From Dictyostelium discoideum (lineage: Eukaryota): 64,000 bases of DNA. Below the pieces are notes generated by a model. It made no database searches, was not told the DNA's origin, and saw nothing but the letters and a program-made list of their open reading frames with translations. This document shows, piece by piece, positions 9,764 to 51,292 of this stretch. Made by a program: the position numbers and the translations under genes. Each line of letters opens with the position of its first letter. Positions within the stretch are counted from its first letter, which is position 1. The stretch lies in contig CM000153.2 in NCBI GenBank assembly GCA_000004695.1, forward strand, positions 2,400,001 to 2,464,000, in the 5' to 3' direction.

Positions 9764-11233
9764 TTATAATTTTAGATTATTAAAATCTTTAAGATTTTTA
9801 CGTAATAGTTTACCAGTTGCAGATTTAGGAATTGCAGGTATGAAAAAGATACCACCTCTGAAATGTTTATAATTTGCAATTTTTGGGTGAGCCCAATCCA
9901 AGAGTTCTTTTTCAGTAAGAGATTCATTTTGTTTAATAACAACGAAACCTCTTGGTACTTCACCCATATCACCTTTTGAAAGACCTACTACACAGGCATC
10001 TGCAACTTTTGGATGAGATAATAGTAATGCTTCTAATTCAGCAGGTGGTACTTGGAAACCTTTACATTTGATCAATTCCTTTGATCTATCGATGATAAAG
10101 AAATAACCATCTTCATCAACATAACCAATATCACCAGTTTTTAAGAATCCATCTTTATCTATGACTTCATTGGTTGCCTTTTCATTGTTATAATAACCCA
10201 ACATAACATTTGGACCTTTAATACAGATTTCACCCTTTTCACCCATACCTAAATTCTCACCAGTCTCTGAAGAGATGATTTTAGCTAATAGATTGGGTAA
10301 GAGGGTACCAGAGGAACCCGATTTAACTAATCCATTTGGGGTTACAAAACAACATGGACTAAGTTCGGTAGCACCATAACCTTGTTTAATTACAAGTCTG
10401 CCTTTGAATCTTTCTTTAATTAAATCTTCAATCTCTGAACCTAATGGAGCAGCACCACAAAATAGTGTACGTAAACTTGAGAGATCAAATTTATCGACGA
10501 TTGGTGATTTTGCAAACATGATAGCAATCGGTGGAACAATGAATGACATTGCAACCTTATACTTTTTAATTAATTCCAAGAATCTAACTGGTTCGAATTT
10601 TGGTAAGGTAACAATTCGATAACCTTGTTTCACCATCAACATTATGTGTAACATTAAACCAAAGGAATGAAAGAATGGTAAGACACCAATAACGCTATCA
10701 TTCTTTTTATAGGTTGATGTTTCAATGGTTTGAGTTTGATATGTATTTGAGACTAGATTATAGTGACTTAAACAAACACCTTTAAATAATCCAGTTGTGC
10801 CACTTGAAAATGGAATAATAGCTGTATCTTTCGTTAGATCAATTCTAACGATTGGGTAATCTTTACCATTATTATTAGTTAATTGATTAAACGACATTAC
10901 AATTCCATCACTAGATAAAGTTAATTGATCAATTTCTTTTAAAGTTTGACCTGCAATATCGACTAAAATCACTTTTTCAACACTTGGAAAAACTCTTTTT
11001 AAATCATTTTTAATCTTTTCATATACTGCTAATGTTACTGCTAAATATCTTGGTGAAACTGTTGCTAATGTATGTGATAACTCTTCAATTGTATAGTCTG
11101 GATTAACTAATGATGTAATGCCTCCCATCAATAATGTACCATGAAATATTGGTACATATTCTGGTAAATTTGGTAGAATTACTCCAAGTACATCACCTTT
11201 TTTAATATTTAATTTATTTAAACCACATGCAAC
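9764..11233 (-). CDS. 4cl: 4-coumarate-CoA ligase-like (AMP-dependent synthetase/ligase) copy A, exon 2 (incl. stop)
   Basis: ORF-track 455-aa ORF (first 'M' is TTG) extended upstream to the acceptor ag at 11235/11234. Contains the AMP-binding motif SSGTTGLFKGV and 4CL box II GEICIKGPNVMLGYYNN. Copy A ends NNLKL. The three 551-aa tandem genes match the known Dictyostelium 4cl1-3 family; which paralogue is which is not determinable here. Confidence 0.85.
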   Translation of the reverse strand, partial: VACGLNKLNIKKGDVLGVILPNLPEYVPIFHGTLLMGGITSLVNPDYTIEELSHTLATVSPRYLAVTLAVYEKIKNDLKRVFPSVEKVILVDIAGQTLKEIDQLTLSSDGIVMSFNQLTNNNGKDYPIVRIDLTKDTAIIPFSSGTTGLFKGVCLSHYNLVSNTYQTQTIETSTYKKNDSVIGVLPFFHSFGLMLHIMLMVKQGYRIVTLPKFEPVRFLELIKKYKVAMSFIVPPIAIMFAKSPIVDKFDLSSLRTLFCGAAPLGSEIEDLIKERFKGRLVIKQGYGATELSPCCFVTPNGLVKSGSSGTLLPNLLAKIISSETGENLGMGEKGEICIKGPNVMLGYYNNEKATNEVIDKDGFLKTGDIGYVDEDGYFFIIDRSKELIKCKGFQVPPAELEALLLSHPKVADACVVGLSKGDMGEVPRGFVVIKQNESLTEKELLDWAHPKIANYKHFRGGIFFIPAIPKSATGKLLRKNLKDFNNLKL

Positions 11234-11322
11234 CTAATTAAAAAATAATAAAAATAAAAATAAAAAAAAAAATTTTTAAAACTTGTTTGGAAATAGAAAA
11301 AAAAAAAAAAAAATTTATTTAC

Positions 11323-11508
11323 CTTTTCAATTGTATCAGCGACAAAATGTGAAGAATATTCTTTAAAAGTTAAACCATCAACTAATAAAACTTGATCAGG
11401 TTTATATCTTATATGTTTTAAAATTAAATGTGGTATTGGTTTCTCTGGTATTATAATATTTGGGTATTTTGATGTGAAATAAGTTTGTCCATTAATTATT
11501 CTAATCAT
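11323..11508 (-). CDS. 4cl: 4CL-like copy A, exon 1 (62 codons, MIRIINGQTYFTSKYPNIIIPEK...ADTIEK)
   Basis: ATG at 11508-11506. GTAAAT donor at 11322; 89-nt intron. Exon 1 + exon 2 = 1656 nt = 551 aa + stop. Confidence 0.8.
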
Positions 11509-11613
11509 CCTTAAATTTTTAATTTTTTTTTTTAAAATGGTATTGTGTTTATGCTATGGGTTATTATTTAAAAAATTTTCTGTTGGTATTAATATATTAC
11601 ATTTAAATAAAGG

Positions 11614-11652
<39 letters not shown>

Positions 11653-12111
11653 AACAGTTTTATTAATTGTTTGTTTTACTATTATTAATAGTAAATTTTT
11701 TTTTTTTTTTTTATATTTTTTATAGTATAAAAATGTGGTGTTTAGAAAAAATATCTCAAACTGGAGATTTTTCAAAAATAAAAATACTAACAAATATTTT
11801 TCTCTTGCCAAACATTTTTTATTTGTTTATTATTTTTTATTATTACTATAATTAATATTATGATTATTAAAAACTTATTAATATTAAACAATTTAATTCA
11901 TTACATATCAAAAATTAAAAAATTGCAATCGATAATAAAAAAAAAATCTTGGTCCATAATATTTTCTTTTTTTTTTTTGAAAATGTTTTTTTATTTTATT
12001 TTCTATTTTTTATTATATTTTTTTTTCCTCCCTACTGTTTTTTTATTTGTAATAAGTAAAAAAAAAAAAACACGGTAAAACCGAATCTCGAGAATATCTT
12101 TTAAAATTTTC

Positions 12112-12378
12112 TTAATGACAAGACCTAATTTTTTTTTTTTTATTTTTAAAACTTGTTTGGAAATAGAAAAAAAAAAAAAAAAATTTATTTACCTTTTCAA
12201 TTGTATCAGCGACAAAATGAGAAGAATATTCTTTAAAAGTTAAACCATCAACTAATAAAACTTGATCAGGTTTAGATCTAATATGTTTTAAAATTAATTG
12301 AGGTATTAGTTTCTCTGGTATTATAATATTTGGGTATTTTGATGCGAAATAAGTTTGTCCATTAATTATTCTAATCAT
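12112..12378 (-). pseudogene. Orphan duplicated 4CL first exon + intron remnant (no exon 2): truncated paralogue relic
   Basis: The exon 1 homologue is intact, with ATG at 12378 (MIRIINGQTYFASKYPNIIIPEKLIPQ...) and donor at 12192, and the intron copy is conserved. Similarity ends exactly at the acceptor (gacctaatt at 12124-12132). No downstream AMP-ligase exon exists before 4CL-A exon 1. Confidence 0.7.
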
Positions 12379-12836
12379 CCTAGAAATTTTTTTTTTTTTT
12401 TTTTAATAAACAATGGCGAAACTTAAATTAGGAGAATTTTGGAAAACAAAGAAATAATAAAAAAAAAGTTAAAAATAATAATTATTTATTTTTTAAAAAA
12501 TGGTATGGTGTTTAAAAAAAAAAGTTAAAAATAATAATTATTTATTTTTTGCCTCGTAAAAAAAAAAAATAATAAAGTATATTAATTTGTTTGTTTTAAT
12601 TAATTTTATGTTACGCCACATTAATTAATTTTATTTAGTATTTGGCTTTTATCGATAAAAGGTGTTTTTTTTTGTATACCTTTCTTCATTTATCCTAATC
12701 TTTTTAAATAATAAATTGAAAAAAAATCAATAAAATGTGAATAATAAAAATTTAGGTGCCGAAAAAAAGGTGTTTTGGATTTGTATGGGGTGGAAGAAAA
12801 TAAAAAAATATAAGTAAAAAAAAAAAAAGAGGAGTC

Positions 12837-12861
12837 AAACCCCACAAACGCCCCATAAAAT
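12837..12861 (+). promoter_or_regulatory. Two tandem DUSE-like motifs (ACCCCACAA / CCCCATAAA), the Dictyostelium upstream sequence element of ncRNA genes
   Basis: caaaCCCCACAAacgCCCCATAAAa matches the published DUSE consensus [AT]CCCA[CT]AA. A T-run lies ~150 bp downstream, at 13011-13025. Confidence 0.3.
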
Positions 12862-13290
12862 TACTTTTCACAAATAAAAAATTAAAAAAAAATAAAAAAA
12901 TACAAAAAAAAAGTGGTGTTGTCATAAATAGTAAATCACGCAAGATATTTTAGACTAGTAAAAAACAGTGCTATTTGAATTCAAACCGACATTAAAAAAT
13001 AATTTTATCTTTTTTTTTTTTTTTTAATTTAAAAAAACAGATGGTCTGTTTTTTTTTTTTTTTTTTTTTTTTTCTCCCCATCTGTTTTTTTAAATTAAAA
13101 GACCAGGAGAAAAAAAAATAAAAAAACAAAAAATATCAAAGAATTTTATTCAGTATTATTTAGAAAAAAGAAAATATTAATAATTTATACTAATAAAATA
13201 TATTTTTTTATATAGAATCAATCCAAAACATTAGTTTAGCAACTTGTTGTAAATTTTAAATTTTTATTTTTTATTATAATTTTATTTATT

Positions 13291-14760
13291 TTATAATTTC
13301 GGAGGATTAATATCTTTAAGATTTTTACGTAATAGTTTACCAGTTGCAGATTTAGGAATTGCAGGTATGAAAAAGATACCACCTCTGAAATGTTTATAAT
13401 TTGCAATTTTTGGATGAGCCCAATCCAAGAGTTCTTTTTCGGTTAGAGATTCATTTTGTTTAATAACAACGAAACCTCTTGGTACTTCACCCATATCACC
13501 TTTTGAAAGACCTACTACACAGGCATCTGCAACTTTTGGATGAGATAATAGTAATGCTTCTAATTCAGCAGGTGGTACTTGGAAACCTTTACATTTGATC
13601 AATTCCTTTGATCTATCGACGATAAAGTAATAACCATCTTCATCAACATAACCAATATCACCAGTTTTAAAGAATCCATCTTTATCTATGACTTCATTGG
13701 TTGCCTTTTCATTGTTATAATAACCCAACATAACATTTGGACCTTTAATACAGATTTCACCCTTTTCACCCATACCTAAATTCTCACCAGTCTCTGGAGA
13801 GATGATTTTAACCAATTGATTGGGTAAGAGGATACCAGCGGAACCAGATTTAATTAGTCCACTTGGAATTACAAAACAGGCTGGACTAAGTTCGGTAGCA
13901 CCATAACCTTGTTTAATTATGAGTTTTCCTTTGAATCTTTCTTTAATTAAATCTTCAACCTCTCTGCTTAATGGAGCAGCGCCACTAAATAGTGTACGTA
14001 AACTTGAGAGATCAAATTTATCGACGATTGGTGATTTTGCAAACATGATAGCAATCGGTGGAACAATGAATGAAATTGCAACCTTGTACTTTTGAATTAA
14101 ATCCAAGAATCTAACGAATTCAAATTTTGGTAGGATAACAACACAATGACCTTGTTTTACCATCAAAATTAGGTATGTCATTAAGCCATAGATATGAAAA
14201 AATGGTAGTTGACCCATAACTGTATCATTCTTTTTATAGTTTGTCGTTTCAACGGTTTGAGTTTGATGTGTATTGGAAACGAGATTATGATGACTTAAAC
14301 AAACACCTTTAAATAATCCAGTTGTACCACTTGAAAATGGAATAATAGCTGTATCTTTCTTTAGGTCAATTCTAACGATTGGGTAATCTTTACCATTATT
14401 ATTAATTAGTTGATTGAATGACATTACAATTCCATCACTAGATAAAGTTAATTGACCAATTTCCTTTAAAGTTTGACCTGCAATATCTACTAAAATCACT
14501 TTTTCAACACTTGGAAAAACTCTTTTTAAATCATTTTTAATCTTTTCATAAACTGCTAATGTTACTGCTAAATATCTTGGTGAAACTGTTGCTAATGTAT
14601 GTGATAGCTCTTCAATTGTATAGTCTGGATTAACTAATGATGTAATGCCTCCCATCAATAATGTACCATGAAATATTGGTACATATTCTGGTAAATTTGG
14701 TAGAATTACTCCAAGTACATCACCTTTTTTAATATTTAATTTATTTAAACCACATGCAAC
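13291..14760 (-). CDS. 4cl: 4CL-like copy B, exon 2 (incl. stop)
   Basis: 455-aa ORF plus upstream extension to acceptor ag at 14762/14761. About 90% identical to copy C. Ends ...NPPKL. Confidence 0.85.
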   Translation of the reverse strand, partial: VACGLNKLNIKKGDVLGVILPNLPEYVPIFHGTLLMGGITSLVNPDYTIEELSHTLATVSPRYLAVTLAVYEKIKNDLKRVFPSVEKVILVDIAGQTLKEIGQLTLSSDGIVMSFNQLINNNGKDYPIVRIDLKKDTAIIPFSSGTTGLFKGVCLSHHNLVSNTHQTQTVETTNYKKNDTVMGQLPFFHIYGLMTYLILMVKQGHCVVILPKFEFVRFLDLIQKYKVAISFIVPPIAIMFAKSPIVDKFDLSSLRTLFSGAAPLSREVEDLIKERFKGKLIIKQGYGATELSPACFVIPSGLIKSGSAGILLPNQLVKIISPETGENLGMGEKGEICIKGPNVMLGYYNNEKATNEVIDKDGFFKTGDIGYVDEDGYYFIVDRSKELIKCKGFQVPPAELEALLLSHPKVADACVVGLSKGDMGEVPRGFVVIKQNESLTEKELLDWAHPKIANYKHFRGGIFFIPAIPKSATGKLLRKNLKDINPPKL

Positions 14761-14838
14761 CTAATTGAAAAATAATAAAAATAAAAATAAAAAATTGATA
14801 TTAGTTTTGGAAAAAAAAAAAAAAAGAAATTTATTTAC

Positions 14839-15024
14839 CTTTTCAATTGTATCAGCGACAAAATGTGAAGAATATTCTTTAAAAGTTAAACCATCAACTA
14901 ATAAAACTTGATCAGGTTTCGATCTAATATGTTTTAAAATTAAATGTGGTATTGGTTTCTCTGGTATTATAATATTTGGGTATTTTGATGTGAAATAAAT
15001 TTGTCCTTTAATCATTCTAATCAT
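14839..15024 (-). CDS. 4cl: 4CL-like copy B, exon 1
   Basis: ATG 15024-15022 (MIRMIKGQIYFTS...). GTAAAT donor at 14838; 78-nt intron. Total 551 aa. Confidence 0.8.
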
Positions 15025-15363
15025 CCTGAAATTGTTATTTTTTTTTTTAAAAATATCAAAAAAAAAAAAGAATAAAATAAAACTTAAACCAGGAGAATTT
15101 TGAAAAAAAAAAATATTTAAATTTAAAATGTTAAAAAATGGTATGGATGTGTTTAAGCTATGGGCTAATATTTAAATAATATACAATAGGTAATATTTTA
15201 CAAACAAATTAAAAAATTAAAAAAATATCAAAAAAAAAAAAAATTAAATAAAAAAAAAAAAAAAAAATCAAGTTTAAAAATTTGTGTGTTTTAATTATTA
15301 TTATATTAGACACATTAATTAGTTTTATTATTATTATTTTTTCTTTTTTTTCTACTTTAAAAA

Positions 15364-15399
<36 letters not shown>

Positions 15400-16041
15400 A
15401 TTTTTTAAAATGTGTGGTTTAGGAATAAGATCCCTCAAATAAGATTATGCCAATTGAAAATTATAAAAAATTAATTTTCCAATATAAAGAATAAACAAAG
15501 AAAAAATGTTTTGCACTGGGTTTATAAAATTAAACAAAAATTTAATATAAATTAAAACAATCTCTCATTTTTCAAAAATGATTCAATCAATTAAAAAAAT
15601 GAAAGATTGCAAAATTTTATTAATTTAAAATTAAGTTTATTAATATCTTCGGTGAAAAAAAGAAAATTCACAGAAGAAAAAAAAAAAAAAAATCATTTTC
15701 CACATAAAACTATTCAAATTAATTTATTTATTCAAACAAATAAAAATTTATGAAATATTTGAAATATCTAATAAAGAAAAAAAATCGAAATAATATACAT
15801 ATAGCATATTGAATAGTTTTAAAAAAAAAACAAAATTCAAACCAAATATTATTAAAAACTAAAGAATGTTTTTCAGTAAATATTATTTAGAAAAAAAGAA
15901 AAAAATTTAATAATCTATGCCAATATTATATATATTTTTTTTTATAGAATCACATTAGTTTAATAACTTGTTGTAAGTTGTGTTTAAATTTTTATTTTTC
16001 GACTTAAGTTTAATTTTTTATTTTTTATTTTTTATTTTATT

Positions 16042-17511
16042 TTATAATTTTGGAGGATTAAAATCTTTAAGATTTTTACGTAATAGTTTACCGGTTGCAG
16101 ATTTAGGAATTGCAGGTATGAAAAAGATACCACCTCTGAAATGTTTATAATTTGCAATTTTTGGATGGGCCCAATCTAAGAGTTCTTTTTCGGTTAGAGA
16201 TTCATTTTGTTTAATAACAACGAAACCTCTTGGTACTTCACCCATATCACCTTTTGAAAGACCTACTACACAGGCATCTGCAACTTTTGGATGAGATAAT
16301 AGTAATGCCTCCAATTCGGCAGGAGGTACTTGGAAACCTTTACATTTGATCAATTCCTTTGATCTATCGACGATAAAGTAATAACCATCTTCATCGACGT
16401 AACCAATATCACCAGTTTTTAAGAATCCATCTTTATCTATGACTTCATTGGTTGCCTTTTCATTGTTATAATAACCCAACATAACATTTGGACCTTTAAT
16501 ACAGATTTCACCCTTTTCACCCATACCTAAATTCTCACCAGTCTCTGGAGAGATGATTTTAGCCAATTGATTGGGTAAGAGGATACCAGCGGAACCAGAT
16601 TTAACTAATCCACTTGGAATTACAAAACAGGCTGGACTAAGTTCGGTAGCACCATAACCTTGTTTAATTACAAGTCTGCCTTTGAATCTTTCTTTAATTA
16701 AATCTTCAACCTCTGAACTCAATGGAGCAGCACCACTAAATAGTGTACGTAAACTTGAGAGATCAAATTTATCGACGATTGGTGATTTTGCAAACATGAT
16801 AGCAACTGGTGGAACAATGAATGAAATTGCAACCTTATACTTTTGAATTAACTCCAAGAATCTAACTGGTTCAAATTTTGGTAAGACAACAACACGATGA
16901 CCTTGTTTCACCATCAACATTAAGAATAACATTAAACCATAGATATGAAAGAAAGGTAATATACCCATAACTGTATCATTCTTTTTATAGGTTGATGTTT
17001 CAATGGTTTGAGTTTGATATGTATTGGAAACGATATTATGATGACTTAAACAAACACCTTTAAATAATCCAGTTGTACCACTTGAAAATGGAATAATAGC
17101 TGTATCTTTCTTTGGGTCAATTCTAACGATTGGGTAATCTTTACCATTATTATTAATTAGTTGATTGAATGACATTACAATTCCATCACTAGATAAAGTT
17201 AATTGATCAATTTCTTTTAAAGTTTGACCTGCAATATCGACTAAAATCACTTTTTCAACACTTGGAAAAACTCTTTTTAAATCATTTTTAATCTTTTCAT
17301 ATACTGCTAATGTTACTGCTAAATATCTTGGTGAAACTGTTGCTAATGTATGTGATAACTCTTCAATTGTATAGTCTGGATTAACTAATGATGTAATGCC
17401 TCCCATCAATAATGTACCATGAAATATTGGTACATATTCTGGTAAATTTGGTAGAATTACTCCAAGTACATCACCTTTTTTAATATTTAATTTATTTAAA
17501 CCACATGCGAC
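16042..17511 (-). CDS. 4cl: 4CL-like copy C, exon 2 (incl. stop)
   Basis: 455-aa ORF plus extension to acceptor ag at 17513/17512. Ends ...NPPKL. Confidence 0.85.
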   Translation of the reverse strand, partial: VACGLNKLNIKKGDVLGVILPNLPEYVPIFHGTLLMGGITSLVNPDYTIEELSHTLATVSPRYLAVTLAVYEKIKNDLKRVFPSVEKVILVDIAGQTLKEIDQLTLSSDGIVMSFNQLINNNGKDYPIVRIDPKKDTAIIPFSSGTTGLFKGVCLSHHNIVSNTYQTQTIETSTYKKNDTVMGILPFFHIYGLMLFLMLMVKQGHRVVVLPKFEPVRFLELIQKYKVAISFIVPPVAIMFAKSPIVDKFDLSSLRTLFSGAAPLSSEVEDLIKERFKGRLVIKQGYGATELSPACFVIPSGLVKSGSAGILLPNQLAKIISPETGENLGMGEKGEICIKGPNVMLGYYNNEKATNEVIDKDGFLKTGDIGYVDEDGYYFIVDRSKELIKCKGFQVPPAELEALLLSHPKVADACVVGLSKGDMGEVPRGFVVIKQNESLTEKELLDWAHPKIANYKHFRGGIFFIPAIPKSATGKLLRKNLKDFNPPKL

Positions 17512-32932: not shown

Positions 32933-33565
32933 TTAATCTTCAATTAATGATAAATATCTTTTTTTATCAAGTTGAGTAAGTTTTGATTGTTCATCATAGT
33001 TTGTTGGAATGATTGATTGTGAGATTTTAAGGAATTCAGAGAGTGGACACATACCATCTACCTCTTTATCTTTACATGGTCCAATATGAATTGGTTTATG
33101 ATTATAGATAACTTTAACATATTGATGATTGATTAATTCCTTTTCGATTGATTTTGTGATTTTCACAACTTCTGGTTCTTTGTAATCTTTATCTTGCATT
33201 AAAAGGAATTCTAAAGTTGATGAAGTCACTGGATGAATTTTATCTTCATACATATCGTAACCCACTAATAATGCTGCCAATGTAGTATCGTGACCTGAAT
33301 ATAATGAAAGTTTTAAATCTTTTACTGATGGATCATTACGTGCTTTCAATTTTAATTCTTTATTTAAATCATCAACGAATCTACCAATACCCAATATCGA
33401 CATCTCTGGGAAATATCTTGCACTCTTAAATTCTTTTGCACTCTCTTCATACATTCTTTGAATAATATCTTTTGTTAATCCTTTTGGAATTGGTAAACCA
33501 TTATTTCTAAAACAATCAAATGAATTCACTAATCCTGCATATGATCTAAATCCTCTAGCTCTAAA
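32933..33565 (-). CDS. Histidine acid phosphatase paralogue A, exon 4 (last; contains the HD motif YSGHDTTLAALL)
   Basis: ORF-track 198-aa ORF extended upstream (FRARGFRSYAGLVNSFDCF...) to acceptor ag at 33567/33566. Confidence 0.75.
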   Translation of the reverse strand, partial: FRARGFRSYAGLVNSFDCFRNNGLPIPKGLTKDIIQRMYEESAKEFKSARYFPEMSILGIGRFVDDLNKELKLKARNDPSVKDLKLSLYSGHDTTLAALLVGYDMYEDKIHPVTSSTLEFLLMQDKDYKEPEVVKITKSIEKELINHQYVKVIYNHKPIHIGPCKDKEVDGMCPLSEFLKISQSIIPTNYDEQSKLTQLDKKRYLSLIED

Positions 33566-33644
33566 CTAAAATTATTTATTTATTTATTATTATTATTAAT
33601 CTATTATTTTTTTTATTTATTTTTTTTTTCCAACTTTTACATAC

Positions 33645-33770
33645 ACTTGATTCTTCTGGTTTACTATTTTCAAAAATTTTATTAATTTTTTCAGTAAATT
33701 TTTCTAATTCACTTAATTGATTCTCTTTAATAACTTTTGGATGTTGTTTAATTAAATTTTTTAAAAATAC
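33645..33770 (-). CDS. Histidine acid phosphatase A, exon 3
   Basis: VFLKNLIKQHPKVIKENQLSELEKFTEKINKIFENSKPEESS. GTATGT donor; acceptor ag at 33772/33771. 42 codons. Confidence 0.6.
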
Positions 33771-33847
33771 CTAATTAAAAAAAAAATAATTAATAAATAT
33801 TGAAAATGTTGTTTGGAGAAAACAAAAAAAAAAAAAAAAAACATTAC

Positions 33848-33973
33848 TAATTTTTTTGAATTTCTTGGATACATATTCTCTTCATTATCTGGTTTCACTA
33901 AAAATGAAGAATGATGTGGTGATTTCTCTTGTTCATCAGTAAATGAACCACCATAAAGACCATGCATTAAAGA
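33848..33973 (-). CDS. Histidine acid phosphatase A, exon 2
   Basis: SLMHGLYGGSFTDEQEKSPHHSSFLVKPDNEENMYPRNSKKL. GTAATG donor; acceptor ag at 33975/33974. Confidence 0.65.
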
Positions 33974-34081
33974 CTTTTTTTTTTTTTTTTTTCAAAAAAT
34001 TTAAAAATGTTAATAATAATAATAATAATAATTGTTAAAAAAAAGAATATAAATAATGTATATAATTTATATAAAAATTAC

Positions 34082-34591
34082 TCTGGCAGAAGAAATTGTT
34101 CTTGTTGTATTTGTGGATCTAATAAAGATTTGATCTTTGTTATATTGAGAATCAAGGAAACCAAGATGATCAATAAATAATTTTCTATAAATTTTACCAA
34201 CATTAATTTGATCAACTATACCAAGTACAGTTAATTGACCTGGATTACAATTTGGTCTTGGTGAATCTTTATTTGAGATTAAATGATCCATTGAATTACA
34301 CATCCACATTGTTAATGGTGTTCTATTTGATTCTGGTGTTCTTCTGCCATGTCTAGTTACGATTTGAATGAATTTCAATTTATATTTTTCATTATCATAA
34401 TCTTCAAGATGAACATCTGTTGATCTCAATGGAGAGAATTTAAATTTTGGATCAGAATGTTCATTCTTTAAATCTCTACTATTAATATTTGTTTGTAACT
34501 CAACTTTTATACCACTACCTCTACCATCACCACCACCACCATTTTGATTTTCTTCAACTTTTTGTTGACTTTTTCTAAAATAACTAAACAT
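34082..34591 (-). CDS. Histidine acid phosphatase A, exon 1 (RHGRRTP active-site motif)
   Basis: ATG 34591-34589. ...IVTRHGRRTPESNRTPLTMW... GTAATT donor at 34081. The four exons sum to 1395 nt = 464 aa + stop. Confidence 0.7.
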
Positions 34592-34638
34592 TATACCAAA
34601 ATTTTATTTCAAAATTATTTGCGTAAAAACGTTTTGAG

Positions 34639-34674
<36 letters not shown>

Positions 34675-35038
34675 AAAAAAAGCAAAAAATGATAATGATC
34701 AAAACGTTTTGTTTTTTTTTAATTTTTATTTTTAAATTTTTATTTTTTTTTAATTTTAAATCTTTAAAAATCTTCGGCACCAAAAATGAACTGTTTGACT
34801 TTCTTATTTTAAAAAATAAAAAAAAAAAAAAAAAAATTATTATTATTTCGAAAATAAACAGGGGTGTTAATTTTTTATTTATTTATATATTTATTTATTT
34901 ATTTTCCCCCATTCCAATAAATGTAACCAAGAAAAAAAAGAATAAAAAATTTCAAAATATATTTATTTATTTTTATTTTTATTTTTATTTTTATTTTAAT
35001 CTTTTATTTTCAATCAAACAAAAAAAAAATAATTATTT

Positions 35039-35662
35039 TTAGGTTGATTCTTGAATATATTTATTCTTTTCTTCATCAGTAATTTTTGATTGTTCATCAT
35101 AATTTGTTGGAATGATTGATTGTGAGATTTTAAGGAATTCAGAGAGTGGACACATACCGTCTACTTCTTTATCTTTACATGGTCCAATATGAATTGGTTT
35201 ATGATTAAAGATAACTTTAACATATTGATGATTGATTAATTCCTTTTCATTTGATTTTGTGACAACTTCTGGTTCTTTATAGTTTTTATCTTGGAATAAA
35301 AGATATTCCAAAGCTGATGAAGTCACTGGATGAACATTATCTTCATACATATCATAAGCCACCAATAATGCTGCCAATGTAGTATCGTGACCTGAATATA
35401 ATGAAAGTTTTAAATCTTTTACTGATGGATCATTAACAGACTTTAAATACATTTGTTTTGTTAAATCATTAACGAATCTACCAATACCCAATATTGACAT
35501 CTCTGGGAATAATCTTGCACTCTTAAATTCTTTTGCACTCTCTTCATACATTCTTTGAATAACATCATTTGTAAATCCTTTTGGTAATGGTAAACCATTA
35601 TTTCTAAAACAATCAAATGAATTCACTAATCCTGCATATGATCTCCAACTTGGTACATAAAA
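35039..35662 (-). CDS. Histidine acid phosphatase paralogue B, exon 3 (last; HD motif)
   Basis: 195-aa ORF extended upstream (FYVPSWRSYAGLVNSFDCF) to acceptor ag at 35664/35663. Confidence 0.75.
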   Translation of the reverse strand, partial: FYVPSWRSYAGLVNSFDCFRNNGLPLPKGFTNDVIQRMYEESAKEFKSARLFPEMSILGIGRFVNDLTKQMYLKSVNDPSVKDLKLSLYSGHDTTLAALLVAYDMYEDNVHPVTSSALEYLLFQDKNYKEPEVVTKSNEKELINHQYVKVIFNHKPIHIGPCKDKEVDGMCPLSEFLKISQSIIPTNYDEQSKITDEEKNKYIQEST

Positions 35663-35694
35663 CTAACAATTGTAATAAATATTAATATATAAAT

Positions 35695-35735
<41 letters not shown>

Positions 35736-35752
35736 AAATTTTATTTACTTAC

Positions 35753-35875
35753 AGCAGTATCAAATTTGCTATCTTCAAAAATATTTTTAATCTTTTCAGT
35801 AAATTCTTTTAAATTACTCTTTTCATTTTCTTCAATTACAGCTTTATGTTTTTTTAATAAACCTTTTAAAAAATT
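35753..35875 (-). CDS. Histidine acid phosphatase B, exon 2
   Basis: NFLKGLLKKHKAVIEENEKSNLKEFTEKIKNIFEDSKFDTA. GTAAGT donor at 35752; acceptor ag at 35877/35876. Confidence 0.6.
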
Positions 35876-35969
35876 CTTTTTTTTTTTTAAAATTATTATA
35901 TAAAAAAAAAAAAAAATTATTATTATTATAATTTTCTTTATATATTAAAATAAATAATAAAAAACATAC

Positions 35970-36644
35970 ATATTTTGGAGAAGATCTTGGATACATATTT
36001 TCATCTTTTTCATCTAAAATTAAGAAAGAAGAATGATTTGGTGATTTTTCTTGATCATCAGCAAAAGAACCACCATAAAGACCATGCATGAAAGATCTAG
36101 CACTTGAGATTGTTCTTTCACGATTTGAAGATCTAATAAAGATTTGATCTTTATTATATTTATTATCAAGGAAATGAAGATTATTAATGAATAGATTTCT
36201 ATAAGCTTTACCAACATTAATTTGATCTACAATACCGAGTACAGTTAATTGACCCATATTACAATCTGGTCTTGAAGTATCTTTATTTGTAATTAATTGA
36301 TCCAATGAATTACAAGTCCACATTGTTAATGGATATCTCTTTGATTCTGGTGTTCTTCTACCATGTCTTGTAATGATTTGAACAAATTTCAATTGGTAAT
36401 TCTCTGGATTATATTCATCTATTGGTACTTTAGTTGATCTTAATGCTAAAAATTTAAAATTTGGATCTGTATGTTGATTCTTAAAATCTTCTTCTTTTAC
36501 AAGTGTTTGAAGGTAATCATTAATTTCAATTGAATTCTCTTTATTATTATCATTATTGTTTATATTGTTTTTTAAATTAATATTTGGATTTTCATCTAAT
36601 TTAACAGTACCAACTATTGAATTTAATAAAAAATTAATTATCAT
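35970..36644 (-). CDS. Histidine acid phosphatase B, exon 1 (RHGRRTP)
   Basis: ATG 36644-36642. It is continuous through ...TISSARSFMHGLYGG...PKY, with no intron where paralogue A has one. GTATGT donor at 35969. Total 1422 nt = 473 aa + stop. Confidence 0.7.
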
Positions 36645-41775: not shown

Positions 41776-41865
41776 AAAATTACCAAACATCAACATATAA
41801 AACATGTGTGAGTTAGTTGGATGTGTTTATTTTTATTTCAAAAAAAAAAAAAAACAAAATTAAAA

Positions 41866-41896
<31 letters not shown>

Positions 41897-42204
41897 AAAA
41901 CAAAAAAAAAAAAAAAAAAAAAAAAGAAAAGAAAGGAAAAAACAACCATTTATTAATTTTTGTATGATTATTATAATTCAAATTAAAAATATATTATATA
42001 AATATATATAAATATATATTAAATAAAAATAATAATAAAATAAATTTAATATAATAAAAAATTTTTTTGAGAAAAAAAAAAAATAAAAAAAAAAAAAAAA
42101 AAAAAAAAACCAAAAAAAAACAAAAAAAAAAAACCAATAAAAAAAAAATAAAAAACAATAAACAAAATTATATTTATTAAATAATTATAATCAATACAAA
42201 TAAA

Positions 42205-42292
42205 ATGAAAAAAATAAACAATAATAAAATTTTTGTTTTATTTTTGACAATATTATTATATTTATTAAATATTACAACTGCGCAAAAGCCAG
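42205..42292 (+). CDS. psi-type (PA14 + Cys-rich repeats + TM) secreted/membrane protein, exon 1 (signal peptide)
   Basis: ATG 42205. MKKINNNKIFVLFLTILLYLLNITTAQKP is a typical signal peptide. GTAAAT donor at 42293. Confidence 0.65.
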
Positions 42293-42445: not shown

Positions 42446-42751
42446 TGTCAATAAATATAAAGATATTTGATCAATTACCTTTATATAATGATAATTTTGG
42501 TTCACAATCAAGAGCAGCAACCATTAAGAGTATGGTTGCAACATCATTAAATACAACATTTAAAACTCCAAGTTTAGGATCAGCCACCTCAAGCTTACCA
42601 TCACCACAATTATTCCAATATTGGTTTCAATCAAATTTTGCCAATGAAACAAAAAACTCTGGTTTAAATGCCCCATTAACAAGAACAATTACCTTAAACT
42701 ATGATTCTGACAGTGGTAATTATATTTTCAACAATCCAAATTTCTTTTTAA
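42446..42751 (+). CDS. psi-type gene exon 2
   Basis: Acceptor ag at 42444-45 (the track's GTG 'M' ORF 42445..42801). GTAGGT donor at 42752 was chosen because it gives the phase needed by exon 3. Confidence 0.55.
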
Positions 42752-42878: not shown

Positions 42879-43249
42879 TTGATACAGATGGATTCGATAA
42901 AACAGCATCAAATCGTATTTATAAAGATTCAACTGGTACATATCATAATTACCATTATTGTGTTGCCTTTAATTATGTTTTTAAACCAGACGGCCAAGGA
43001 AAAGAAATGTTTAAATTCACTGGTAATGATGATGTTTGGGTATTTGTAAACAATAAATTATTATTAGATGGCGGTGGTGTTCGTTCACCAGAGGCAACAA
43101 CAGTTGATTTCACAAAAGCTGGACTTGTTAAAAGTCAAGAAACTCCATTAGATTTCTTTTATTGCGAACGTAGTACAAACTCTCCTCCATCATTTAAAAT
43201 TGAAACTAATCTTGGCGGATTATATTGTAAAGCTTATGATTATTGCGGT
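42879..43249 (+). CDS. psi-type gene exon 3 (PA14 domain core)
   Basis: FKFTGNDDVWVFVNNKLLLDGGG...DFFYCERSTNSPPSFKIETNLGGLYCKAYDYCG is a PA14 signature. GTAAGT donor at 43250. Confidence 0.65.
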
Positions 43250-43378: not shown

Positions 43379-44683
43379 GTTTGTAATGGTGATGGTGGTA
43401 CATGTTGTAATCCACAAACAGATTGTTTAACTCAATTAGAAAATGGTACATTAATTAATGATAAATGTACAATACCAATTTGCCCACCTTTAGATACACA
43501 AATTGATAAAAATCTTGGTATTGGTTTCTTCTGTCAACATTCTCAAATTCCAGATCCATATGCTGGAAGTTTATGTGAAAAGGGAGAATGTGATTCATTA
43601 ACTGGTATTTGGACTAGAAATACAAGTATTTGTCCAACTGATAAGGATCTTGCACCACAATGTAGAAAACAAGCTACATGTGATCCAAAATTAGGTTGTC
43701 AATCAACTTACTTATGTAACAATGTTTGTGATATTGGTACATGTAACAATGGAACTTGTACCCAAAAGACATCGAATGATTGTGTCCAAGAGTTGGATCG
43801 TGGTGTTGAAGATAAATGTTTCACTTATAAATGTGTTCCAAATGTTGGTTGTTCCAAAACTCCAATTTGTCCAAGAGGTACTGATCCATGTAAAAACTAT
43901 ACCTGTTCTGGAGGTATTTGTGGAACTGTTGATATTCCTCAAAGTGAATGCAGTTGTCCTTGCCCAGGTTTAAACAAATGTAATACCAGAATTTGTAATC
44001 CAGATAATACTTGCACTCTTTTCAATCTCACTGAGATTAACGATGGTAACCCATGTACTGATGATTTATGTGACCCAGTCACCGGTGACATCACTCATGT
44101 TATGACCACTAGATGTTCAGGTTGTAACACTTGTGATGTTAAGACTGGTAAATGTGTAGCTCAAGATTCTCATTGTGATGATGGTAATCCATGTACTGAT
44201 AATGCTTGTGTCGCTTCAGCTAATAGTACCGCCAATAGCCAAGTTGGTCAATGCACTCAAACTCCAACTGCTAAATGTGATTTGGGTGATAAATGTATGG
44301 TTTACAGTTGTACCTTGGAAGGTGGTTGTAATGCAACTCAACGTGTTTGTCCAAACTCTGGTGCTTGTAAAATTGGTTATTGTGAACCTGGTTTCGGTTG
44401 TAAATTAAAGGATAGAGTTTGTTCTTCCGATTGGTATTGTATTGAAGCTCAATGTGATGCAAAATATGGTTGCATTCAATTCGATAGAAGATGTGCTCCT
44501 GATAATAGTAAATGTCAAGAAGGTGTCTGTGTAAACAATACTGCTATCGGTAAAAATGATGGAAAATGTATTTCTGAAGATTATGATCCAAAACCATTTG
44601 TTTGTCAAAAAGCTGCTTTAGTTTCAACTGCTGTTATTGCAAGTGTTGTTGTAGTTGGTGCTGTTGTTTTAGGTGCTGCTATA
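43379..44683 (+). CDS. psi-type gene exon 4 (about 20 Dictyostelium-type Cys-rich repeats and the TM helix)
   Basis: Acceptor ag at 43377-78. CxxxxC-rich repeats (CTDDLCDPVTG, CDDGNPCTDNAC...). TM segment ALVSTAVIASVVVVGAVVLGAAI. GTAAGT donor at 44684. Confidence 0.7.
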
Positions 44684-44694
44684 GTAAGTAATCT

Positions 44695-44738
<44 letters not shown>

Positions 44739-44790
44739 AAATTCTAATACCTTATTTTCTTTTCTTTTTTTTTTTTTTAATTTAATAAAG

Positions 44791-44922
44791 TTTGCGGGTA
44801 AGAAAGGTTATGATGCTTGGAAAACAAGTCAAGGAAATGTTATGGCAGCTTCACAAGCTAATCCATTATATACTCAATCAAGTAATGGAGGTGAAAATCC
44901 ACTCTATAACTCACCAACATAA
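44791..44922 (+). CDS. psi-type gene exon 5 (cytoplasmic tail with two NPxY motifs; stop TAA 44920-22)
   Basis: FAGKKGYDAWKTSQGNVMAASQANPLYTQSSNGGENPLYNSPT*. The five exons sum to 2202 nt = 733 aa + stop. The ORF-track ORF 44792..44992 is the wrong frame. Confidence 0.6.
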   Translation, partial: FAGKKGYDAWKTSQGNVMAASQANPLYTQSSNGGENPLYNSPT

Positions 44923-45041
44923 ATCCAAAAACCTAATTTATAAAATCATGTATTGTTTTAATTTTAATTTTTTTCCAGTCTTATTTTCATAAAAATGCGC
45001 CTCAAATATATAATGTACAAAAAAAAAAAAAAAAAAAAAAA

Positions 45042-45072
<31 letters not shown>

Positions 45073-50677: not shown

Positions 50678-51292
50678 TTAATTAATGCAAGTTGCTTTAT
50701 ATTGAGCATCAAAACATGTAGTTAAATGGTTTGTATTACAGGAATTAGAATTATCACCACAAATTGTGATGTATGGAATTCCTTCTACACAAGTAAATTC
50801 TTGAGTTGAACTTTGATTATCATAATCAACTGTTGTACCATTTGTTACAAAAGTAAAGTTTTGATAATTATCAATACTACATGGGTCACCAAAACTACCA
50901 GATTTACTCCATACATTAAATTGTAATGAATTTTTTGGTAAATCAGCATTCAATTCAACTAAATAATAACCTTTAAAATAGGTTGAATATTGGCATGTAT
51001 TAAAATTGAATATCTCTGTAACATAAGGTTTTCCATTTGAACCAAGTACGCTCATCTTGAGTTGATCACTTTTTGTTGATTCAGAGAAATCTAAAAGGTC
51101 ATAAAAATTTCCAAAAACTTGAATTAAATTTGAATTCATAGATGTCAATTCTGGCATATAACCATAACCAATACCACCACCAACTTGAGTGCATTTTGAA
51201 TCTCTGAATGGAGTTAATACAATTGTTTCATTTTTTGAAAAAACTGAGTTAATTGAAAAGATTAAAAATATAATTGAAAATAAGAGTTTCAT
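50678..51292 (-). CDS. Small secreted Cys-containing protein (204 aa), function unknown
   Basis: ATG 51292-90. Signal peptide MKLLFSIIFLIFSINSVFS. 10 Cys; N-glycosylation sequons. Single exon. Confidence 0.75.
   Translation of the reverse strand: MKLLFSIIFLIFSINSVFSKNETIVLTPFRDSKCTQVGGGIGYGYMPELTSMNSNLIQVFGNFYDLLDFSESTKSDQLKMSVLGSNGKPYVTEIFNFNTCQYSTYFKGYYLVELNADLPKNSLQFNVWSKSGSFGDPCSIDNYQNFTFVTNGTTVDYDNQSSTQEFTCVEGIPYITICGDNSNSCNTNHLTTCFDAQYKATCIN

Follow-up and report, generated by a model that had tools for sequence, protein, structure and literature searches.

The psiM gene and its last exon

The stretch analyzed here, called the window, comprises 64,000 nucleotides of the Dictyostelium discoideum genome (contig CM000153.2, positions 2,400,001 to 2,464,000) and is AT-rich eukaryotic DNA with a GC content of about 0.22. 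Its forward strand contains psiM, a gene of five exons that codes for a psi-type protein with a single transmembrane (TM) helix, and our subject is the short cytoplasmic tail of this protein, in which the motif NPLY occurs twice. By sequence criteria, this NPxY pair is real and strongly conserved, and it belongs to a TM/tail cassette that recurs in hundreds of protein clusters. Rather than acting solely as a secreted factor, PsiM probably serves as an adhesion receptor that binds sugars.

A single combination of GT/AG splice sites gave an open frame, which resulted in the five exons and a product of 733 residues. This product is identical over its full length to PsiM of D. discoideum AX4 (Q54P69 / XP_638389.1), and as it corresponds letter for letter to Q54P69, the acceptor and the reading frame that the first-pass annotation had assumed for exon 5 are correct. 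Translation of positions 44791-44922 on the forward strand yields FAGKKGYDAWKTSQGNVMAASQANPLYTQSSNGGENPLYNSPT followed by a stop codon. This is the last exon, and it codes for FAG and then KKGYDAWKTSQGNVMAASQANPLYTQSSNGGENPLYNSPT, that is, for the last three residues of the TM helix and the entire 40-residue cytoplasmic tail. The annotation had also described a psi-type PA14/Cys-repeat protein with one TM helix, which agrees with the gene model, the Pfam matches, the identity with PsiM, and a helix at residues 679-704 in the AlphaFold2 model, and it had correctly placed two NPLY motifs in a short tail with an exon of its own. This exon follows a phase-0 intron (Table 1).

PsiM shares the phase-0 intron ahead of [FY][AG]GKKGYD with three tandem paralogues of D. 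cf. discoideum. This intron is absent from the homologues in Heterostelium and Cavenderia, in which stalk, TM segment, and tail lie in one exon, which is why an ancient origin of the tail exon as a shuffling unit was rejected. The separate tail exon is a trait of the genus Dictyostelium and not ancestral. The three D. cf. discoideum paralogues (750, 745, and 756 residues) are of the PA14-CTDC type and lie on contig JBTAPI010000065.1 (L002, 2685-12506), each with the cassette at its end and on a separate last exon. Elsewhere in the 64-kb window, no psi paralogues were detected by tblastn. Very long poly(A)/poly(T) tracts, which are typical of Dictyostelium, flank psiM and fill its introns (41840-42130, 44700-44735, and 45020-45070).

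Table 1. Features of psiM in window positions
Feature	Position	Strand	Basis
psiM, all exons	42205-42292, 42446-42751, 42879-43249, 43379-44683, 44791-44922	+	
Exon 1: start codon and signal peptide MKKINNNKIFVLFLTILLYLLNITTAQKP	42205..42292	+	gene model, PsiM identity, AlphaFold2 N-terminal helix 3-22
Exon 2: N-terminal ectodomain and start of PA14	42446..42751	+	PA14 residues 121-240, residue 121 at 42718
Exon 3: PA14/fibro-slime lectin-like head	42879..43249	+	Pfam, NCBIfam, Foldseek
Exon 4, main part: CGVCNGDGGTCC motif, Cys-rich Dicty_CTDC-type stalk, juxtamembrane DYDPKPFVC	43379..44611	+	
Exon 4, end: most of the TM segment, AALVSTAVIASVVVVGAVVLGAAI	44612..44683	+	translation, AlphaFold2 helix 679-704, cassette profile positions 1-26
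Intron 4: phase 0, GTAAGT...AAAG, three residues ahead of the KK anchor	44684..44790	+	
Exon 5, start: final TM residues FAG	44791..44799	+	
Juxtamembrane anchor KKGYDAW	44800..44820	+	
Variable linker KTSQGNVMAASQA	44821..44859	+	
Membrane-proximal NPLY, residues 714-717	44860..44871	+	
Eight-residue spacer TQSSNGGE	44872..44895	+	
Membrane-distal NPLY, residues 726-729	44896..44907	+	
C-terminal NSPT and stop codon (stop 44920-44922)	44908..44922	+	

Conservation of the NPxY pair

The tail is nearly unchanged in the orthologues of D. cf. discoideum, D. citrinum, D. dimigraforme, and D. firmibasis, and in the latter it is 93% identical to that of PsiM, compared with 77-83% in the ectodomain. 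It is also kept in homologues from Heterostelium, Cavenderia, Tieghemostelium, Acytostelium, D. purpureum, and Synstelium. Conservation of the pair had been named as a check on the original idea, and both NPxY motifs were indeed present in all close orthologues and in the majority of paralogues, with one degenerate motif in a few of the latter. Some family members lack the tail: PsiA has neither TM segment nor tail, and one Acytostelium homologue has a Ser/Thr-rich stretch and a hydrophobic end in its place.

For each region of the protein, we averaged the identity to PsiM over 36 full-length homologues. This mean was 0.35 for the PA14 head, 0.36 for the Cys-rich stalk, 0.54 for the TM segment, and 0.53 for the tail as a whole. 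Within the tail, it reached 0.96 at the first and 0.90 at the second NPxY motif and 0.83 at KKGYDxW, and fell to 0.32 in the linker and 0.36 in the spacer. Such a combination of highly conserved motifs with poorly conserved flanks reads as the signature of selected short linear motifs. Besides the NPxY motifs, the KKGYDAW anchor is the best-kept stretch of the cassette, with both Lys residues, the Tyr, and the Asp conserved to at least 90% in two alignments.

As Dictyostelium proteins are rich in Asn and the NPxY motif is short, it was in principle conceivable that the composition of the proteome had produced the two NPLY by accident. This has next to no probability: the six frames of the whole window contain only 11 NPxY, two of which are those of the PsiM tail, eight residues apart, and an identical spacing is found in hundreds of clusters. 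The contrast between the motifs and their linker and spacer refutes an accidental origin.

The KKGYD-2xNPxY cassette

A first profile of TM segment and tail, built from five sequences, retrieved short fragments of metagenomic and EukProt origin that end in the same way. A 12-sequence profile of the same region was searched against 1.84 billion cluster representatives, so that the returned sequences are representatives and not all carriers of the cassette. It matched 657 clusters with E-values of up to 1e-3, of which 252 had values of up to 1e-10. In nearly all cases, the match lay at the very C-terminus, and the representative of the PsiM cluster scored 100.7 bits (E 3e-24) over profile positions 1-66, corresponding to residues 666-731 of 732. 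Two long proteins that ranked high in this search, P0043 and P0050, were discarded as spurious repeat matches without NPxY, and P0114 turned out to be a read-through gene model that cuts the cassette short.

The geometry of the cassette was determined with the best 150 of the 657 matches. A Gly/Ala-rich TM segment with a median of six Gly is followed by the anchor G-G-K-K-G-Y-D-[YW]-[WY], and the first NPxY motif begins 21-22 residues after the start of G-G-K-K (NPLY 73, NPMY 20). The spacer has exactly eight residues in 87 of 100 tails with two motifs, the second motif follows the pattern NP[LFM][YFH], and mostly 1-8 residues remain to the C-terminus. For the residue frequencies, we used 134 distinct tails that had been selected by the pattern NPx[YF], so that the Asn and Pro are fixed by the selection. 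The third residue of the first motif was Leu in 78% and Met in 20%, and its fourth residue was Tyr in 95% and Phe in 5%, whereas the last residue of the second motif was Tyr in 69%, Phe in 20%, and His in 10%. Position -6 before the first motif is hydrophobic (Met 55%, Ile 13%, Leu 8%, Phe 6%, Val 4%), with Met in PsiM, and Gly occupies position +10 in 72% of the tails. At position -2, where PsiM has Gln, the tails have Gln in 32%, Asn in 26%, and Ser in 13%, and no aromatic residue is among the five commonest.

These frequencies also bear on a possible role of the conserved tyrosines (in GYDAW and in the two NPLY) as phosphorylation sites that recruit SH2 proteins such as STATs, Shk kinases, or CblA. 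There are three well-conserved Tyr positions, Dictyostelium phosphorylates Tyr by means of tyrosine-kinase-like kinases, as reviewed, and phosphorylation of integrin NPxY motifs is described in the review literature as a switch between partners. The replacement of Tyr by Phe or His in 30% of the second motifs and by Phe in 5% of the first motifs disfavors an obligatory phosphate, and we regard a tail that works mainly as a phosphotyrosine platform as quite improbable.

Resemblance to integrin beta tails

The first-pass annotation had compared the tandem motifs with those of integrin beta tails. The resemblance becomes visible only with family profiles. When 177,635 PDB sequences were searched with a 39-sequence profile of TM segment and tail, integrin beta-1 was the best match (E 0.0037), with an alignment that spans the TM segment and both NPxY motifs up to the C-terminus, and integrin beta-1, -1D, -2, -3, or -7 made up 15 of the 22 matches at E < 10. 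With a tail-only profile, 12 of 13 PDB matches were integrin beta tails, including chains that had been solved with talin-2 (3g9w) or filamin (2jf1, 2brq) and a beta-3 tail peptide (2l1c). The profile alignments revealed the same eight-residue spacer in integrin beta-1, -1D, -2, and -3, as can be seen from a comparison of NPLY-TQSSNGGE-NPLY-NSPT in PsiM with NPIY-KSAVTTVV-NPKY-EGK in beta-1 and NPLY-KEATSTFT-NITY in beta-3. In the reverse search, Integrin_b_cyt (PF08725) was the top Pfam family for TM segment and tail of PsiM (14.1 bits, E 0.039), and it matched 26 of the 39 cassette members with a best E of 5.8e-4, compared with six of 39 for the next family. Tails of both kinds end a few residues after N(P)x[YF], show a Y/F variation as known from beta-2, and follow a TM segment that is rich in small residues.

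Several observations speak against an integrin-like function of the PsiM tail. The resemblance is weak (E 0.004-0.04), the matched integrins are paralogues and therefore no independent evidence, and none of the scores reached the gathering threshold of PF08725 (23.4 bits). With the 43-residue PsiM tail as a single query, phmmer found no integrin in the PDB, only an irrelevant putative blue fluorescent protein at E 0.97. The HDR[RK]E (LLxxxHDRKE) segment that serves alpha-subunit pairing is absent from PsiM, which has KKGYDAWK where the aligned integrin has IIHDRREFAKFEKE, and the invariant KKGYD[YW][WY] of the cassette conversely has no counterpart in integrins. Ahead of the first motif, PsiM has a Met at -6 where integrins have a Trp at -5, and the distance from the TM segment to this motif is about 20 residues in PsiM as opposed to about 28 in beta-1. 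Beyond the tail, the head of PsiM is a PA14 domain and not a beta-I domain with hybrid insertion, PSI domain, and I-EGF stalk, and no alpha partner is implied. The analogy drawn at the outset therefore stands with respect to the profile matches, the spacer, and the top Pfam family, but not with respect to the family threshold, the HDR[RK]E segment, and the Trp at -5. On sequence grounds, the resemblance of the cassette to integrin beta tails is specific but weak; it supports a tail that works in the manner of an integrin beta tail, and it fits common descent and convergence alike.

Position -2 and the spacing are equally relevant for the question of whether the NPxY pair could mainly be a trafficking code, read by PTB- or FERM-like sorting adaptors for internalization or for recycling from endosomes to the surface, with no force-bearing link to actin. 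In animals, the NPxY sorting adaptors are Dab2, ARH, Numb, and SNX17. NPxY is the classic endocytic signal of the LDLR family, and the distal NxxY of integrins is a recycling signal for SNX17. A second motif that tolerates Tyr, Phe, and His would suit a looser sorting signal, and a sugar-binding PA14 head would suit an uptake receptor in a phagotroph. However, the LDLR-type signal [FY]xNPxY requires an aromatic residue at -2, where the 134 tails have Gln, Asn, or Ser and PsiM its Gln; integrins have no aromatic residue at this position either. The rigid eight-residue spacing and the terminal position match integrin beta tails and not those of LDLR and LRP, and neither of the two cassette profiles matched an LDLR-family chain in the PDB. 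Moreover, PsiM is a protein of late development and not of the vegetative feeding stage. We thus consider a predominant trafficking function unlikely, although it is the alternative that we take most seriously.

Head, stalk, and predicted structure of PsiM

In the ectodomain, Pfam recognized a PA14 domain (residues 121-240, 4.7e-11, 43.1 bits with a cut-off of 24), and NCBIfam recognized the overlapping Fibro_Slime domain TIGR02148 (residues 153-243, 2.3e-24, 85.6 bits with a cut-off of 45). The Dicty_CTDC repeat of the stalk scored 26.3 bits, slightly below the Pfam cut-off of 27, which is exceeded by homologues, and the stalk cysteines are invariant in the homologue alignment. PA14 and CTDC are the only domains that Pfam found in PsiM, and no VWA domain was among them. 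With the PsiM sequence as the query, no PDB chain matched at E ≤ 0.1. The AlphaFold2 model, which was based on an alignment of 37 sequences and had a mean predicted local distance difference test (pLDDT) score of 76.6, contains a confident ectodomain with a beta-hairpin stalk (pLDDT 75-90), and a low-confidence tail (residues 704-733, pLDDT below 50). The tail is predicted to be disordered and accessible, as expected for short linear motifs. With Foldseek, the modeled head matched the sugar-binding PA14 domains of MpIBP, Flo1, Flo5, and Epa1.

Directly before the TM segment, there is a further extracellular motif, [DE]Y[DS]P[KL]PF[GV]C, which reads DYDPKPFVC in PsiM (window 44579-44605) and of which the Tyr, both Pro, the Phe, and the Cys are invariant across the psi subfamily. 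Its role may be that of a structural cap or of a site for shedding.

The CTDC stalk profile also gave high scores for many long bacterial proteins, several of them from Myxococcota, Polyangiaceae, and Deltaproteobacteria (for example P0227, P0230, P0281, P0300, and P0301), which do not have the TM/NPxY cassette. Dictyostelium therefore shares its Cys-rich "Dictyostelium repeat" with social bacteria.

One cassette under several heads

The cassette is not restricted to PA14 proteins. In a set of 53 longer cassette proteins, CTDC repeats are present in 40, PA14 in 22, VWA in six, and disintegrin and EGF domains in one. The VWA-headed proteins have about 740 residues and consist of a VWA domain with the DxSxS of a MIDAS (metal ion-dependent adhesion site), four to eight CTDC repeats, and then the TM segment and tail. 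Metagenomic and metatranscriptomic carriers of this type are P0058, P0075, P0095, P0119, P0138, P0158, P0226, and P0233 (loci L004 and L005); P0058 and P0075 lie on intronless, transcript-like contigs of 2.3 kb, and further examples were found in an MMETSP transcriptome and in Logan assemblies. The VWA heads resemble those of collagen VI, ANTXR2, and integrin alpha-I more than beta-I domains. An integrin-beta-like head was rejected for these relatives, as the order of secondary structures places the VWA domain in series after an N-terminal beta domain, with no sign of a hybrid-domain insertion. A third head type was seen in P0153 (431 residues, ENA metagenome), which has disintegrin-like and EGF-like domains and the cassette end NPLYEEAPENGVNPLY. 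Modularity therefore resides in the head and not in the tail.

The AlphaFold2 model of P0058 (mean pLDDT 69.8) aligned with the heavy chain of the Entamoeba histolytica Gal/GalNAc lectin (HgL) over about 750 columns with a Foldseek E of 2e-25, and HgL was also the best Foldseek match of the PsiM model in the PDB (E 4e-6), in this case through the stalk. The TM-scores of these alignments are low (0.1-0.25), because both molecules are elongated. According to its published architecture, HgL consists of a beta domain, a VW-like domain, and a Cys-rich arm, and its tail has been reported to be similar to that of beta-2 integrin. This adhesin shares with PsiM its amoebozoan origin, its type I topology, and a Cys-rich arm, but PA14 is missing from it, and no MIDAS is present in its VW-like domain. 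No HgL chain in the PDB was matched by the TM-plus-tail or tail-only profile, and the deposited sequence may or may not include the tail. PsiM is a PA14-headed version of a modular amoebozoan adhesin design, and the VWA-headed proteins look like homologues of the Entamoeba adhesin in free-living amoebae, with an intact MIDAS and an integrin-beta-like tail.

The amoebozoan integrin-beta homologues described by Kang et al. (10.1101/2020.04.29.069435) are likewise type I proteins, in which a head of the VWA type is followed by a Cys-rich stalk, a TM segment, and an NPx[YF] tail. Their stalk has the pattern DxCGxCGG, and a comparable motif, CGxCxGxG, is found in PsiM and its VWA-headed relatives. 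The same study reported no canonical integrin beta in Dictyostelium and did not describe PA14-headed carriers of such tails (Kang et al., 10.1101/2020.04.29.069435). A scaffold of Mastigamoeba balamuthi with an integrin-beta gene also bears a PA14 open reading frame (ORF) (Kang et al., 10.1101/2020.04.29.069435), possibly a hint of linkage between the two head types.

Given these findings, the cassette could be a true homologue of the integrin beta TM segment and tail, in other words an ancient module of Amoebozoa, possibly of Amorphea, which is combined with interchangeable heads (PA14 lectin, MIDAS-bearing VWA, or disintegrin/EGF) on a common Cys-rich stalk. We put this forward as a tentative idea that is more likely wrong than right. 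If it were true, the dozen or so membrane-anchored Psi proteins of Dictyostelium, including PsiM, would fill the vacant place of matrix receptors that couple to talin in the multicellular stages, which would explain why talin B is needed for morphogenetic force transmission despite the lack of a canonical integrin.

A proposed function of PsiM in adhesion

On balance, and with some reservation, we favor the view that PsiM is a lectin-type surface receptor of late development. It would be a type I receptor with a PA14/fibro-slime head, a disulfide-rich CTDC stalk, one TM helix, and a disordered tail of 40 residues. The membrane-proximal NPLY would form a reverse turn and dock into a FERM protein, most likely talin, at its PTB-like F3 lobe, and the distal NPLY would be a second site, either for another partner with an F3/PTB fold or for sorting. 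In this way, the binding of carbohydrate or matrix outside could be coupled to cortical actin inside during culmination and the formation of the fruiting body. What we infer from this arrangement is the ligand, the binding partner, and the link to actin. Dictyostelium has seven FERM proteins, of which talin A or B would be the first candidates and myosin VII or FrmA-C the alternatives. [quoted passage not shown]

There is precedent for such a tail in the same organism. Published descriptions portray the Sib proteins (SibA-E) as type I adhesion receptors with a short conserved tail and two NPxY motifs. In SibA, the proximal motif is needed for the binding of talin A, and loss of SibA abolishes the force on talin A. 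To our knowledge, the Sib proteins have so far been treated as the sole integrin-beta-like receptors of Dictyostelium, which lacks canonical integrins. Sib proteins have about 1,900 residues, and no protein of this length was among the best 150 cassette matches. They differ from PsiM, with its PA14 head and CTDC stalk, in having a VWA domain and no Cys-rich stalk (Kang et al., 10.1101/2020.04.29.069435). The TM segments differ as well: that of SibA has five Gly, and glycine-rich TM segments make surface delivery dependent on Phg1A/TM9, whereas PsiM has three Gly in the 27 residues before KK and thus falls below the cassette median of six. Reporter TM segments with three or four Gly showed a partial dependence on Phg1A. 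The missing Sib-length proteins and the small number of Gly add to the arguments against our view, as does a proteome study that placed PsiM among exported, matrix-type proteins of late development, which would also fit a shed factor. In favor of our view, the PsiM protein was detected with a peak at culmination and in the fruiting body, in a proteome cluster with the adhesion proteins TgrC1 and csA and with TgrB1.

The grouping with exported matrix proteins leads to the question of whether PsiM mainly serves as a membrane-bound precursor from which a soluble psi-like signal is shed, with a tail that delivers or retains the precursor and a remnant without a receptor role. PsiA, the founding member, shares with PsiM the PA14 head and the CGVCNGDGSTCC motif (42% identity over the N-terminal half), but has a Pro/Thr-rich region and neither TM segment nor NPxY tail, and it has been described as a secreted signal. 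DPF (DDB_G0289949), which by its published description is also a single-pass protein with a short tail of about 30 residues, has a large glycosylated ectodomain that is shed as a density factor, early in development as opposed to the late PsiM. The conserved [DE]Y[DS]P[KL]PF[GV]C motif could be the processing site. On the other hand, a motif geometry that is fixed over 657 clusters and several head types would be unexpected for a mere delivery tag, and even in DPF, the TM and cytoplasmic part acts cell-autonomously in substrate adhesion and in growth. We therefore judge it improbable that shedding is the main purpose of PsiM, and shedding as such is compatible with a receptor function. The earlier statement that PsiM is a receptor rather than a purely secreted factor is partly supported in this sense by the TM segment and the conserved tail cassette, while the DPF precedent leaves room for shedding of the ectodomain.

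Links between psi or PA14 proteins and NPxY tails were not found in the adhesion reviews consulted or in the amoebozoan integrin survey, no paper that connects psi proteins with NPxY came to light, and literature queries with the name psi were swamped by the Greek letter. If the Psi tails work like those of integrins, the "prespore-inducing factor-like" family would consist of lectin-type adhesion receptors or mechanoreceptors and would provide concrete candidates for the talin partners at culmination. In that case, the integrin tail module would have a longer history than the integrin ectodomain and would be easier to transfer between proteins, and there would be a connection from free-living amoebae to the Gal/GalNAc lectin of Entamoeba, which is a virulence factor and a vaccine candidate.

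Other genes in the window

The neighboring genes in the window code for an ankyrin protein, three 4CL-like proteins, Sec8, MutS, neurochondrin, two acid phosphatases, an OTU protein, a protein of the CfaA/B/C family, saccharopine dehydrogenase, and Snf7, and no functional link to adhesion was seen among them. The three AMP-binding (4-coumarate-CoA-ligase-like) genes form a tandem array of near-identical copies on the reverse strand (9764-17409) with a period of about 3.3 kb, and the peptide ILPNLPEYVPIFHGTLLMGGITSLVNPDYTIEELSHTLATVSPR is present three times in it. The two histidine acid phosphatase genes (His_Phos_2) are also in tandem on the reverse strand (32933-36644), each extending over at least two ORFs. 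A few kilobases from psiM, a reverse-strand ORF (50678-51292) matches the counting factor-associated protein A/B/C family over its full length (PF11912, 8e-33), a secreted family of developmental signaling.

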